Origin: Promethearchaeota archaeon
GTDB lineage: Archaea > Asgardarchaeota > Lokiarchaeia > Sigyniarchaeales > SOKP01
Reading direction: 5' to 3'
DNA length: 64,000 nucleotides
NCBI GenBank assembly: GCA_016840085.1
Contig: JAEOTA010000081.1
Coordinates: 192,001-256,000 of the forward strand
Position 1 is the stretch's first letter. Every line of letters starts with the position of its first letter. Shown here piece after piece: positions 31,689-36,249 of this stretch. Made by a program: the position numbers and the translations under genes. The notes beneath the pieces are model-generated. The model was not told where the DNA came from, searched no databases, and saw nothing but the letters and a program-made list of their open reading frames with translations.

Positions 31689-32831
31689 ATGTTTAATATA
31701 TTTCAATTTGGCAGTGAAGGAACTGATCCGATAAGTTTAATTATCCAACTATTATGGTTTGTTCTTATATTTATAAGTATTTTTTATGGACAGAAGATTC
31801 AAGGTTGGAAAGCATCTAAAGAAATACAAATAGGATTAGAAAAATTAAAAAAATGGAATGACGAGTGTAAAGAAATTTTAATGAATAATTTTAAAGAATT
31901 TGCTGATCAAAAGAAGACTCAAAAAGATTTAATGCTGCAACTTGAAGATTTTATTACTTTTGTTACTATAGCTCCTGTATCACTTGATCCCTATGGTATT
32001 GTACCAAAATTTGACCACGTTGTCGATGTTAGAGATGATCGATTTAGAGAGGAAGTCGCGATTTTAGCACCTAAAGCCGACAGTGTGCAAAGGTACAATT
32101 TGGAGAACTTATTAGAAGCAACAATGGCAATCGATTTTATTTATAGATTAATTAGACATTATTTAATACTCGGTAAGAAAACAAAATCAATGATTTTACT
32201 TATGCAAATATCAATGCAATTAGGTCTAATACTAAGTATGGCTAAAGCTTATTACCATGCAGCTAAAGCTTTCGCAGAGGGGAGCCCTATTGGAGATGGT
32301 CTTGGGCCATTAGTCACAGCTAGCTTTATAAGAGATGTTTCGAATGGAGAAATTGAAGCTAATGAAATTGTTAAAGACACAATAGTTCAAGAAGTTAATT
32401 TTGAAGATAGAACTATATATGTTGTTCGGGCAAAAGGTCCTGGGGGAAGTGTTGGAAAACCGGGGAAAGTTATAAAAAAACTTATTGAGGAACATGGTGA
32501 TGATGTTTCTCGAATAATTATGATAGATGCGGGATTAAAACTTACAGGAGATAAAACAGGTTCAATTGCGGTAGGCGTTGGGGCAGCTATAGGGGGTTTA
32601 GGTATCGAAAAACATTACATTGAAGAATCTTCAACAGGAAAATCAATTCCAATTGATGCACTTATCTGTAAACAATCGCTAGAAGATGCTATAACCACTA
32701 TGAAAAGACCAATAACTCAAAGTGTACCAAATTTTGTAGAGAAAATTAAGATGGCAATTCGAAAGCGAACTGAAAAAGGAACAAAAATCATACTGGCAGG
32801 CATTGGAAATACTATCGGAATAGGTGTTTAA
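31689..32831 (+). CDS. DUF1512 family protein
   Basis: PIGDGLGPLV, KGPGGSVGKPG, IIMIDAGLKL, GVGAAIGG, GIGNTIGIG. Confidence 0.85.
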   Translation: MFNIFQFGSEGTDPISLIIQLLWFVLIFISIFYGQKIQGWKASKEIQIGLEKLKKWNDECKEILMNNFKEFADQKKTQKDLMLQLEDFITFVTIAPVSLDPYGIVPKFDHVVDVRDDRFREEVAILAPKADSVQRYNLENLLEATMAIDFIYRLIRHYLILGKKTKSMILLMQISMQLGLILSMAKAYYHAAKAFAEGSPIGDGLGPLVTASFIRDVSNGEIEANEIVKDTIVQEVNFEDRTIYVVRAKGPGGSVGKPGKVIKKLIEEHGDDVSRIIMIDAGLKLTGDKTGSIAVGVGAAIGGLGIEKHYIEESSTGKSIPIDALICKQSLEDAITTMKRPITQSVPNFVEKIKMAIRKRTEKGTKIILAGIGNTIGIGV

Positions 32832-32943
32832 CTAGTATTTTTTTTTAAGTTTTCTAAGTAACAAACACTAATTTTAGATTTTTTTCATTTTAGTCTTATA
32901 TTCCTTAAAAATAAAAAAAGAAATTGTTTTATAATTAAGGGAA

Positions 32944-34291
32944 GGTTATTTTTAATTTCCCTTTATGAAATTAAAATTGTATTCTATTTCTTATTACAGC
33001 TATGTAATCGCAATAGAATATGGGTGTAACCCTACACCCTCTATTCCATCTGCCGATATGGCTTTTGGGACTGCTTTTTTAAGGATATTGTATGCGCCAT
33101 TCACATCCGCATTGATCATGATCCCTTCATGACTTTTATATAAACTTCTACAAATACGTTTTCCCTTATAAGTTTCATGCTTGTTAATTGATTCATTATC
33201 TAAGAAACTGCATCTCGAAGTATAATGTTCTGGCATTAGAAAAATATCAATTCCGATTAACTCTGATTTATATTTAATTTGGGACACTAATTTAGAAAAA
33301 GGAATTTGGACAAAGTTCTGGTTATTACGCTTTCCAATTTGTATTTTATGTTTCCAGGTTTTATTATAACCAATAATTATCTTTCCAAAATCATGATCAA
33401 TACAGTAAGTAATCACTGCTCTCGAAATTTTATGAAACATATCATTTATTTTATTGTTTCTTTTCCGAGTTAACCATTGCATTCTTTTTGTTTCAAAACT
33501 AATACCTTGCTTATCTTTTATACTTTTATACTTGGCAAGTTGTTTGTTGTAGAATTGATTAATTGATTTAATACTACCACCTTTAATAATAGCGGGTTTT
33601 AACCCAGCATTATTTACTATAGTTATGATATTGTTCACGCCTAAATTAATTCCAATAACTCTATCTTTATCCAAATTTAAATTTTTTTCTTCTATTTGAT
33701 AAACAATTTCTAAGATATAATAAAATCCTTTCGGAATGATTCTGACGTAGAATGATTTACTTTTTATAGGAGTTTTAATGGGATGCAATTGAGTTTTTTT
33801 TAGGAAAATAAAGAAAACCTACCTTGATCCTGCATTGTTGATTTGTGAATATAATCATATACTCTCCCTGTTTTTTTTATAATGTGGAGGTTTTGGAGTT
33901 CCTAAATACTTTTCTGGATGCTTTTTGTAGGTTTTAAGAGCTTGGAAAAATGATTTCCAATTTTTATCCACGAGTTTTAAAGTTTGCTGAGCAGTTTGTG
34001 AAGGGAGTTTTTTATATGGTTCTTTCTCTTTTAGCATATACCATAAATCGTAATATCTCAACCAATTTCCTAAATAAAAATATTCTTGTCTCATATAATA
34101 ATTGGCAAGATTATAGAGATTTTTAGATAAATGACATAGATAAGATAGTTGATTTGTTTTGTTTAATTGAATCTGCTCTGTCAGTCTCATTGCCATAATA
34201 TTAAACGTTAGTATCAGCTTTAAAAAAAAAGAGACTAATGATTTATAATTGATACAAGAATAATAAAAATAAAGGGAAATTAAAAATATTA
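32944..34291 (-). mobile_element. TnpB-only element bounded by 20-bp perfect inverted repeats and 8-bp direct repeats
   Basis: IR TATTTTTAATTTCCCTTTAT (32947-32966) / ATAAAGGGAAATTAAAAATA (34269-34288). TAAGGGAA at 32936-32943 and 34292-34299, each 3 nt outside the IR. No tnpA present. Confidence 0.6.
33000..34196 (-). pseudogene. tnpB: TnpB (IS200/IS605-related, rearranged RuvC-II type), split by two compensating frameshifts and carrying RuvC-I D->N
   Basis: SKNLYNLANY, LPSQTAQQ, GINLGVNN (normally DLG), IIIGYN, NNQNFVQIPF, EHYTS, NADVNGAYNI, DGIEGVGLHP. A8 runs at 33871-33878 and 33794-33801. Confidence 0.9.
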
Positions 34292-34377
34292 TAAGGGAAT
34301 AAGATTAATTAATTATTAAAATTAATTATTAGAAAAAAGAATAATTTAAACAAATTTAAAATTGAGGTGTAATAAAA

Positions 34378-36249
34378 ATTTACGGTTATATGGGAAAGAT
34401 TTTACGAGTGAATTTAACAAATGGAAAGATTAGCGAAGAATTTCCCGATGAGGTAACATTGAAATTATATTTGGGTGGATCAGGATTAGCTACTAAATAT
34501 TTAATTGATGAAGTCCCAAAAGGAATTGACCCACTCGGCCCTGAAAATAAGCTAATTTTTATGACAGGGCCATTAACAGGAACTCCTTCTCCTAGTACGG
34601 GAAGATATAGTGTTGTTGCGAAGTCTCCTCTTACAATGGTATGGGGTGAAGCAAATTCTGCTGGTTTCTGGGGGCGTGATCTTAAGAGATCAGGTTTTGA
34701 TGGCATAATTTTTGAAGGAATTTCCCCTAAACCAGTCTATCTTGTTACTGAAGATGGAAAGGCGGAACTTAGAGATGCTTCACATCTTTGGGGCAAAAAT
34801 ACTTCTGAAACTACAAGGATCATCAGAGAAGAACTAGGTGATAAATTTAATGTATCATGTATAGGTATAGGTGGAGAAAATCTAGTTAAATATGCAGCAA
34901 TAATGAATGATTGCGATAAACCTAATTATGGGCGAGCCGCAGGAAGATGTGGAATGGGCACAGTAATGGGTTCTAAAAGAGTTAAAGCAATAGCATCAAA
35001 AGGCGATGCTAAGATTGAAGTGGCAAATCCCGATGAATATAAAGCAGAAGCTAAACAAAGATATGATTGGGTAAATCAAAGTTTATTGAAAATGACTCTT
35101 GAAGTCTTCGGAACTGCTACTATGGTTGATTTAGTGAATATAAAGGGTGGCTTACCTACAAATAACTGGCAAACTGGGGTTTTTCCAGCAGCTGATAAAA
35201 TTAATGGGTCAGCAATTAATGAAACAATCCTTACAGGACGCAAACCATGTTTTGCTTGCCCAATAGCTTGCGGTCGACTTTCTGAAATTAAAGAAGGTAA
35301 ATATAAAAGTGCGGGAGAGGGTCCAGAATATGAATCACTCGGAGCTTTAGGGACGATGTGTGGTGTAGATAATCTAGAAGCAATTACTTTGGCGCATTTC
35401 CTTTGTAATGAATATGGTCTTGATGTTATCTCTGCAGGAAATACTATTGGTTTTGCAATAGAATGTTTTGAAAAAGGTATTTTAACTAAAGAAGATACTG
35501 GAGGTCTTGAATTTAATTTTGGGAATGCTGATCTTGTTGTAGATCTTATTGCTTTAATTAGTAAAAGAGAAGGAATTGGTGATTTACTTGCTGAAGGAAC
35601 AAGAAATATGGCAAAAAAGTTAGGAAAAGGATCTGAAAAATTTGCTATGCATGTTAAAGGGTTAGAACTTCCTGCTTATGATAGTAGAGCTGCTAAAATC
35701 ACAGGATTAGCATATGCTACAGCAAATCGAGGAGGTTGTCATATTACGGGATACATAGAAGGTCCCGCTTTTTTATCAATGCCCTTTATGATTGTAGAAA
35801 ATGCTATGGTAGGAGATGTTCTTTCAGAAAATCCAGAAGACACTAAGGTTGTTAAGGAATTTGAAGATGCTTTTGGAATATTTGATGCTATTGGGGGCTG
35901 CAAATTTATGGGAATGGTGTTAACTTCAGAAGATTGGGCATCACTTATTCAAAATCTTTTAGGGTATGCTTTTACCGCAGAAGATTTTGCAAAAACAGGA
36001 GAAAGGCTATACAATCTTGCTAGAGTTTATAATGTGCGAGAAGGGATAACTAGAGCTGATGATACCTTACCTCCACGCTTGTTAGAAGAACCAATGCCTG
36101 AAGGTCCTGCTAAAGGAGAGAAAGTTAATCTAGATCCACTTTTAAATGCATATTATGAATATCGTGGATGGGATAAAGATACTGGCATACCAACTAAAGA
36201 AAAACTCAAAGAACTCGGATTAGAGTGGGCTATTAAAGAAATTTATTAG
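34378..36249 (+). CDS. aor: Tungsten aldehyde:ferredoxin oxidoreductase (first ATG 34390; probable ATT start 34378)
   Basis: (I)YGYMGKILRVNL, KSPLT, GRAAGRCGMG.VMGSK, CFACPIAC, GPEYE, HVKGLELPAYD.R, DDTLPPR. Confidence 0.95.
   Translation: MYGYMGKILRVNLTNGKISEEFPDEVTLKLYLGGSGLATKYLIDEVPKGIDPLGPENKLIFMTGPLTGTPSPSTGRYSVVAKSPLTMVWGEANSAGFWGRDLKRSGFDGIIFEGISPKPVYLVTEDGKAELRDASHLWGKNTSETTRIIREELGDKFNVSCIGIGGENLVKYAAIMNDCDKPNYGRAAGRCGMGTVMGSKRVKAIASKGDAKIEVANPDEYKAEAKQRYDWVNQSLLKMTLEVFGTATMVDLVNIKGGLPTNNWQTGVFPAADKINGSAINETILTGRKPCFACPIACGRLSEIKEGKYKSAGEGPEYESLGALGTMCGVDNLEAITLAHFLCNEYGLDVISAGNTIGFAIECFEKGILTKEDTGGLEFNFGNADLVVDLIALISKREGIGDLLAEGTRNMAKKLGKGSEKFAMHVKGLELPAYDSRAAKITGLAYATANRGGCHITGYIEGPAFLSMPFMIVENAMVGDVLSENPEDTKVVKEFEDAFGIFDAIGGCKFMGMVLTSEDWASLIQNLLGYAFTAEDFAKTGERLYNLARVYNVREGITRADDTLPPRLLEEPMPEGPAKGEKVNLDPLLNAYYEYRGWDKDTGIPTKEKLKELGLEWAIKEIY

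Follow-up and report, generated by a model that had tools for sequence, protein, structure and literature searches.

Elements of the IS200/IS605 group have neither terminal inverted repeats (TIRs) nor target-site duplications (TSDs) and are characterized by subterminal DNA hairpins and the Y1 transposase TnpA. The pairing of TnpB with DDE transposons has been known in outline since 2023, when six DDE-transposase-associated TnpB branches (DDE-1 to DDE-6) were described together with solo TnpBs whose ends match (Altae-Tran et al. 2023, PMC10691335). In that report TnpB lies between inverted terminal repeats with its 3' end no more than 250 bp from the transposon end, and solo copies are presumed to be mobilized in trans. 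A 2026 review noted that DDE transposons are rare partners of prokaryotic TnpB and called for characterization of such cases (PMC13565253). Homing by TnpB has been established for IS605 and IS607 elements, and in the IS607 element CboIStron the last bases of the scaffold are also the last bases of the TAM (10.1101/2023.11.20.567912).

The window analysed here is a stretch of 64,000 nt (G000:C78:192001-256000) from a Promethearchaeota assembly of 4.68 Mb with a GC content of 29.5 %. It contains one decayed member of a family of non-autonomous TnpB elements (Table 1) that belongs to the Promethearchaeota, Loki-type Asgard archaea, and the named records with the same element ends are likewise from Promethearchaeota. 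As in DDE-1 to DDE-6, tnpB is enclosed by inverted terminal repeats that are near-identical to the ends of a transposase-bearing element, and the TIR-bounded family may overlap with one of the six branches. The partners differ, being named as IS630 (PMC10691335, accessible text) and as ISL2 and IS1031 (PMC13565253) in those branches and an IS6/IS1-like archaeal DDE transposon here; the accessible text of the 2023 report gives no TSD, TAM or pseudoknot geometry (PMC10691335). In the openly accessible publications searched, no account was found of an IS6-like or Asgard TIR-bounded TnpB, of an IS6/IS1-like partner or of such a TAM/TSD/pseudoknot geometry.

The family shares its TnpB ancestry with IS607 elements such as CboIStron and would also share the identity of the last scaffold base with the last TAM base and cleavage of the empty site (10.1101/2023.11.20.567912). 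In CboIStron, however, a serine recombinase uses the shared base as its recombination core and neither TIR nor TSD exists, whereas in the present family this base would be the one with which an 8-bp DDE duplication begins. The presence of both TIRs and TSDs separates the family from IS607, recombinases of which were found only beside sister elements without TIRs, and from IS200/IS605, including the IS1341 solos. Fanzors in TIR/TSD transposons are similar in having a rearranged RuvC-II, a guide RNA that overlaps the TIR and TSD bases within TAM and scaffold (PMC10530073, PMC13565253), but in the reported Fanzor cases the TSDs are short, fixed and wholly inside TAM and scaffold, whereas eight variable bases are duplicated here and seven would pass into the guide seed. 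The host in the present case is an archaeon and the likeness implies no claim of ancestry. TldRs have also lost a RuvC catalytic residue, but they occur as clades in which inactivation is conserved, stable new partners other than a transposase are present, transposon ends are lacking and guides match TAM-flanked promoter targets (10.1101/2023.11.30.569447), none of which is seen here.

Table 1. Positions of the TnpB element, its predicted RNA and its flanks, counted from the first base of the window
Feature	Position	Strand	Comment
DUF1512 gene	31689..32831	+	Other neighbour of the insertion site
Conserved BRE/TATA-like motif	32919..32935	+	TTTTATAA at 32927-32934; precedes aor in empty alleles
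Predicted guide, ~20 nt	32923..32942	-	TSD bases 2-8 plus flank; matches empty allele beside TTAT
TSD, right-end copy	32936..32943	+	Single copy in empty alleles of G024, G004 and G025
Right TSD on minus strand		-	32943 predicted last scaffold base; other 7 bases guide positions 1-7
Putative omega-RNA scaffold	32943..33075	-	Overlaps tnpB 3' end; 5' limit provisional; fold z = -2.5
Whole non-autonomous element	32944..34291	-	1,348 bp, single gene tnpB; TIR pair and TSD, copy alignment, empty sites
Right-end TIR	32944..32966	+	23 bp, begins GGT; doubles as predicted 3' part of omega-RNA scaffold, with one arm of the terminal hairpin and the UAACC strand of the pseudoknot
tnpB pseudogene	33000..34196	-	Pfam OrfB_IS605, NCBIfam guided_TnpB; D184N, two compensating frameshifts
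Central omega-RNA hairpin	33022..33039	-	Loop GGGUUA (33032-33027) pairs with scaffold 3' end
RuvC-I Asp-to-Asn codon	33645..33647	-	AAT; found in this copy alone
Region of compensating 1-nt insertion	33794..33808	+	T8 run at 33794-33801
T8 run (A8 on coding strand) with 1-nt deletion	33871..33878	+	
Left-end TIR	34269..34291	+	23 bp; outer triplet TAA on element strand, usually GAG/GGT/GAA; terminal G lost
TATA-like TATTATAA	34287..34294	+	Altered left end plus TSD
TSD, left-end copy	34292..34299	+	Read in sequence; empty-site comparison
Predicted TAM TTAT	34299..34302	-	Three bases outside TSD plus first TSD base
aor (aldehyde:ferredoxin oxidoreductase)	34390..36249	+	Neighbour through insertion only; no tnpB linkage at any other copy

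An earlier note on this DNA had described an inverted 20-mer, an 8-bp direct repeat 3 nt outside each arm and a TATA-like motif between tnpB and aor. All three are present: positions 32947-32966 are the exact reverse complement of 34269-34288 (20/20), TAAGGGAA stands at both flanks and TATTATAA spans the left end. The exact 20-mer occurs three times in the 4.68 Mb, each time at ends of the tnpB element family, and other copies of the family likewise carry the inverted pair at their ends, with few mismatches, indicating that the pair is above chance. Five further full copies, 86-88 % identical, are present in the same genome together with six partial ones, all beside unrelated genes; Asp184 is kept in all five, and an open frame of 396-398 codons in four of them. 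Intact genes lie at C78:57111-58307, C85:106768-107964 and C19:301570-302766. In the copy alignment, similarity extends through the 20-mers and three further bases on their outer side and stops there, fixing the TIRs at 23 bp, and the flanking 8-mers differ from copy to copy and match within each copy. The TSD was exact or 7/8 in 10 complete main-clade elements (three in this genome and seven elsewhere, one of the 10 over 9 bp). The flanks do not match in approximately 7 of 17 complete elements, for which rearrangement or chimeric assembly is assumed.

In three genomes of the same genus (G024, G004 and G025) the DUF1512 gene and aor are joined through one TAAGGGAA, the alignment with G024 being 88.8 % over 2.5 kb without the element. 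The empty joint is also present, at lower depth, in two metagenome runs from the same or a close population. Together with the copy-specific 8-bp duplications and a DDE transposon with matching ends, these empty sites bear out one of the three readings in the earlier note, that TnpB was captured in a TIR/TSD non-autonomous element. On the features that it had asked to see compared between copies, both 20-mers are kept at unrelated loci, whereas the Asp-to-Asn change and the linkage to aor are not conserved: Asp is present in all other TIR-clade rows in which the motif was read, and the neighbours differ at every copy.

Two further kinds of locus were observed. At G000:C19:193138-198805 (L046), two inverted copies, of which one is interrupted by a stop at codon 279 while its partner has a decayed left TIR, enclose approximately 3 kb of genes and have matching flanks at neither copy. 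Short remnants consisting of the omega-RNA/right end alone or the left end alone were seen at G000:C76:25554-25625, C3:36067-36198, L173, L178, L196, L226 and L242. These tnpB-less remnants may be MITE-like relics or guide-only loci.

A genome search for a transposase with the same TIR, as had been proposed, identified a DDE transposon at 16 contig ends (C12, C18, C24, C25, C26, C33, C36, C41, C57, C72, C74, both ends of C77, C79, C80 and C86), the copies of which are 95-100 % identical. Between its ends and the right TIR of the tnpB elements there are differences at 4/23 positions (19/23 identical), and in the LW40/L139 subfamily of other Promethearchaeota the inner 19 bp are identical to the tnpB TIR. 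This autonomous insertion sequence (IS) is recently active. For 6/7 of its right flanks in G000 a left flank with the same 8 bp was found, and 16 paired 8-bp TSDs were found across genomes. The IS is collapsed in the assembly, with at least 9 copies; its 8-bp TSDs join contigs C41/C24, C79/C25, C77/C26, C86/C36, C80/C57 and C12/C72, and its presence at both ends of C77 accounts for the 127-bp inverted ends of that contig.

Full-length relatives of the transposase have 420 aa, an N-terminal Zn ribbon and invariant D139, D197 and E359. Like IS6/IS26 and the archaeal IS6-like elements (PMC6807381), the autonomous IS has a Pfam DDE_Tnp_IS240 domain with an intact triad, G-terminal TIRs and an 8-bp TSD. 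It differs in its 420 aa as opposed to a short transposase, in the Zn ribbon, in the approximately 160 aa between the second D and E, and in a TIR of more than 20 bp that starts with GAT rather than a 14-bp TIR starting with GG. It scored 34-45 bits on the IS6 and IS1 models (44.5 on IS6), compared to cut-offs of 125 and 100. The autonomous IS probably works in an IS6-like manner, yet is outside the IS6 family as defined in PMC6807381.

Judging from the shared ends, it is highly probable that the DDE transposase of this IS, or of a close relative, moved the tnpB family in trans. In G000 the autonomous IS ends in GAT and the tnpB elements in GGT or GAG, so that this IS is only the presumed partner. 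A single TIR pair enclosing both transposase and tnpB was not found among the loci examined.

Further DDE-type loci were also observed. Distant members of the helper transposase family (L146 in G101:C54, L143/L168 in G044 and L155 in G064:C9) have TIRs of their own as well as TSDs of 8 or 9 bp, and form an Asgard IS group that is apparently unclassified. A complete autonomous copy (L185) lies on a 2.3-kb contig binned as Spirochaetaceae (CAZPQC010000363.1), reflecting either mis-binning or transfer. At L265 (G056:C9:52777-53013), beside a contig end, tnpB is joined at codon 129 to a fragment of a DDE-type transposase, which represents either an insertion into tnpB or a capture intermediate.

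The right end of the element is predicted to encode a structured omega-RNA, as indicated by a covarying hairpin and a pseudoknot; Rfam contained no relevant family for this putative RNA. Among 27 right ends, compensatory changes were found in 5/6 pairs of the central hairpin, and the whole omega-RNA structure had 17 compensatory cells, compared to 3.6 in shuffles. Pairing between the right TIR, through its inner arm, and the bases immediately preceding it involves little covariation. The loop GGGUU pairs with the last four element bases and the first TSD base in 98.5 % of cells, with little variation within the clade; prokaryotic omega-RNAs are known to have scaffolds closed by a pseudoknot beside the guide (PMC13565253). 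Between clades, loop and end change together (GGGTTA/TAACCT, GGACTA/TAGTCT, GTGTTA/TAACAT and, in the TTCAA clade, TTGAAC/GTTCAA). Over the TIR and non-TIR clades 84/90 pairs were formed in 15 distinct combinations, compared to a shuffle mean of 73 with 0/5000 as high, a comparison in which the end motifs of the non-TIR sisters were chosen by eye on the basis of multi-copy boundaries, and in which related sequences are not independent of each other.

The final T of this pairing lies within the element in non-TIR relatives and is supplied by the target in the TIR clade. The first TSD base was T in 36/36 right flanks of tnpB elements, compared to 11/27 for the autonomous IS. The outer triplet is fixed on the right (GGT in 35/36) and drifts on the left (GAG, GAA, GGT), which is expected if the right end alone also encodes RNA. 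These patterns suggest that the guide starts at TSD base 2. A guide so defined has a full match only to the empty allele, the best other TAM-adjacent match in the genome being a 10-nt seed with 13/20.

The 20-mer lies upstream of the pseudoknot strand that closes the scaffold and is therefore scaffold; as a guide it was rejected, being invariant across loci and inside the scaffold. The fold of 32936-32965, previously read as an ordinary right-end hairpin, proved peculiar to this copy, in which the TSD happens to resemble the TIR. Within 32936-32966 there is complementarity between the guide seed and the TIR portion of the scaffold, a feature particular to this insertion that could misfold the RNA of this copy.

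The opposite end of the tnpB elements is marked by a one-sided motif. TA/T (the slash marking the outer edge of the TSD), mostly as TTA/T, was found at 21/23 left junctions and 1/36 right junctions. Four subfamilies of the autonomous IS had it at 8/28 left ends and 2/27 other ends, and the contrast between the left ends of the two groups has p ~1e-5 over rows that are not fully independent. There were two exceptions among the tnpB elements, one of which (L190) has a 9-bp TSD that restores the motif, and the other may do likewise. TAT was also read by eye directly before the left end of non-TIR sister solos. From these junctions we infer a TAM of approximately TTAT, with its last base being the first TSD base.

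As a whole, these observations are best explained, with moderate confidence, by a decayed TnpB element that was mobilized in trans and spread by homing with a shared TSD base. Intact copies probably make TnpB together with an omega-RNA that runs through the right TIR. A borrowed transposase would insert the tnpB element and produce the 8-bp duplication. The scaffold would be closed by the pseudoknot with the first TSD base (U) as its last base, and the new guide would consist of TSD bases 2-8 plus flank, the TAM of the empty allele ending on the first TSD base. With a TAM and a full match, the empty allele would be cut and then repaired from the filled allele, which would itself be spared as having a TAM and only 7 matching bases. 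Insertions beside a TAM in the right orientation would be those that spread and persist. Homing by the TIR-bounded family is proposed here by analogy with the IS605 and IS607 elements.

Copies without the motif are nearly absent, which is stricter than mere survival might yield for a transposon with no need to excise. This could instead reflect the transposase itself imposing TA/T, either through unequal ends (GAG/GAA left, GGT right) or in another member of the transposase family, with the TAM merely matching. Autonomous copies already favour TA outside the TSD (15/28 left ends), the motif is near 100 % if 9-bp TSDs are allowed as in L190, and transposase and TnpB are known to converge on one motif in IS605 and IS607 (10.1101/2023.11.20.567912). 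However, the preference of the autonomous elements, taken from four subfamilies, is only loose, and the T fits the pseudoknot of the RNA as well as the junction in non-TIR ancestors, which did not rely on this transposase. We consider this explanation, the main rival, unlikely.

The fixed register and orientation in essentially every copy would also be consistent with a minimal RNA-protein-assisted transposon, in which TnpB and its RNA bind TAM sites and position the borrowed DDE transposase; according to one report, engineered dead TnpBs can direct transposition (10.1101/2025.08.27.672191). Mobile copies, however, keep the nuclease triad intact, the guide would be acquired only after insertion and there is no adaptor gene. 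The autonomous IS moreover reaches TA/T unaided in approximately one quarter of cases, so that a modest filter is enough, and direct targeting of this kind appears improbable.

The preferred reading, of trans-mobilization followed by homing, applies to intact copies, and the copy in the window is not one of them. The change of the RuvC-I Asp to Asn reported in the earlier note is confirmed at residue 184 (GINLG, compared to GIDLG in homologues), as are the missing and the extra nucleotide, with two stops between them. The tnpB ORF stops after 113 codons. Contigs of three public runs (a single study, possibly the source samples) had 0 differences from the window over 33608-33971, indicating that the Asn and both frameshifts are real and not assembly errors. 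No RNA run was listed among the public runs that contain the sequence. Read-through of the two frameshifts by programmed slippage (at A8 runs, A_AAA_AAC in the first case) was set aside, as it needs two opposite slips and is without conservation.

Private changes at otherwise invariant residues numbered 17 in this copy and 4-9 in other copies, its terminal branch is the longest in its subclade (0.14 versus 0.04-0.13), and its pN/pS against the consensus is 0.30, compared to 0.13-0.27 for intact copies. It is the most decayed copy, having lost Asp184, the reading frame and the terminal G of the left TIR, and its suspected status as a relic is upheld by the two frameshifts, the private changes and the branch length. 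A rearranged RuvC-II, defined by replacement of Glu by Gly, an alternative Glu approximately 45 residues on and an NADxN RuvC-III, is present in all copies (GYN, the alternative Glu in E-S/H-F/Y-TS, and NADVN). Comparison to solved structures gave a weak dCas12f match at most.

A real D184N was the starting point for another reading in the earlier note, that a dead, TldR-like TnpB guided by the 20-mer represses aor-fadD or itself. In a weaker form, considered in the present analysis, the TnpB of another copy might use the RNA of this one to bind the left junction without cutting it. TTAT and 7 bases matching the true guide are indeed found at 34302-34292, beside the TATA-like box and approximately 90 bp before aor. 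The original form is nevertheless refuted and the weaker one very unlikely. The Asn is private to this copy, the ORF of which is frameshifted, whereas other copies keep the Asp and carry both 20-mers at unrelated loci. The linkage to aor is unique to this insertion, and the transposon ends have been kept, unlike in TldR. The 20-mer is scaffold and transposon end, the true guide fully matches the empty allele only, and TAM plus seed are matched equally well or better at 23 other sites in the genome.

The insertion may have affected aor in another way. The element landed in a 36-bp motif before aor that is conserved in five orthologous spacers that are otherwise divergent, and the TTTTATAA box, now 1.36 kb from aor, is probably an aor promoter element, from which the insertion appears to have cut the gene off. 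The altered left triplet and the TSD together created TATTATAA, 4 bp closer to aor than the original box. It could tentatively be regarded as a replacement promoter for aor-fadD, and its origin from chance decay in AT-rich DNA is equally possible. A sigma-70 promoter scan gave 13 matches, compared to 10.9 expected, for a promoter type that is wrong for archaea. At 34372-34392 of the window, the conserved AOR start YGYMGK reaches further upstream than the first ATG; for the corresponding start codon G004 has ATG, this genome ATA and other orthologues ATT, AAG or AAT, with a conserved GAGGTG ahead. A non-ATG start of aor is possible.

In a quick, midpoint-rooted TnpB tree of 104 rows, the TIR-bounded TnpBs formed one clade (23 rows, SH-aLRT 97), in which the two solo-labelled rows have damaged or cut-off ends. 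Nearby clades are without TIRs and are often preceded by an IS607-type serine recombinase or its remains. This suggests that the TnpB descends from IS607-type elements, with the direction from IS607 to DDE shell read from a quick midpoint-rooted tree. The suggestion of IS607-like end repeats or an ordinary right-end hairpin therefore holds in part: the IS607-type descent stands, as does the place of the right TIR in the terminal omega-RNA hairpin, but the partner in that hairpin is the sequence just inside the TIR. That the element is an ordinary IS607/IS1341 solo moved by a serine recombinase, its end repeats inverted by coincidence, is very improbable despite the recombinases of its nearest non-TIR relatives and the RNA hairpin role of the right TIR, being contradicted by the empty site, by copy-specific 8-bp duplications and TIRs that are absent from IS607 (PMC13565253), by a TIR common to a DDE transposon and by sister solos that show neither TIR nor TSD.

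One such sister family, at G000:C89:21991-23232 (L048) and in the G023 copies L264-L273, consists of tnpB only, without TIRs or TSD. It ends in GTCT and starts after TAT, and its close relatives have IS607-type recombinases or their remains.

A second TnpB (L085:1200-2545), 47 % identical, belongs to a separate clade (support 100) of elements ending in TTCAA. The TIRs of L085 resemble those of the autonomous IS in G044, its 8-bp TSD is perfect, and its loop TGAGT pairs with the end ACTC and an A supplied as the first TSD base. By these features L085 appears to be a second, independent capture of TnpB by a TIR transposon. A search of 161 genomes for more elements with this type of TIR found only the G044 autonomous ends and one candidate match in G059, so that the second capture is represented by one case.

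In a broader and rather doubtful proposal, the IS6/IS1-like archaeal DDE family would have captured TnpB and omega-RNA at least twice, from IS607-type and TTCAA-ending lineages, each right TIR being rebuilt as a terminal hairpin and pseudoknot strand with the first TSD base completing both scaffold and TAM. In its boldest form, TnpB would set the orientation and register of insertion.

The window's own copy is of less importance, as a relic that is of interest solely for the apparent displacement of the aor TATA box and the possible new box. For the four intact compact nucleases in this genome, the analysis provides a predicted TAM (~TTAT) and scaffold end. The family would represent a concrete, testable solution in which a transposase with loose targeting is combined with a variable 8-bp duplication that becomes guide seed, and in which one base serves both TAM and scaffold, in parallel to the placement of Fanzors in TIR transposons.
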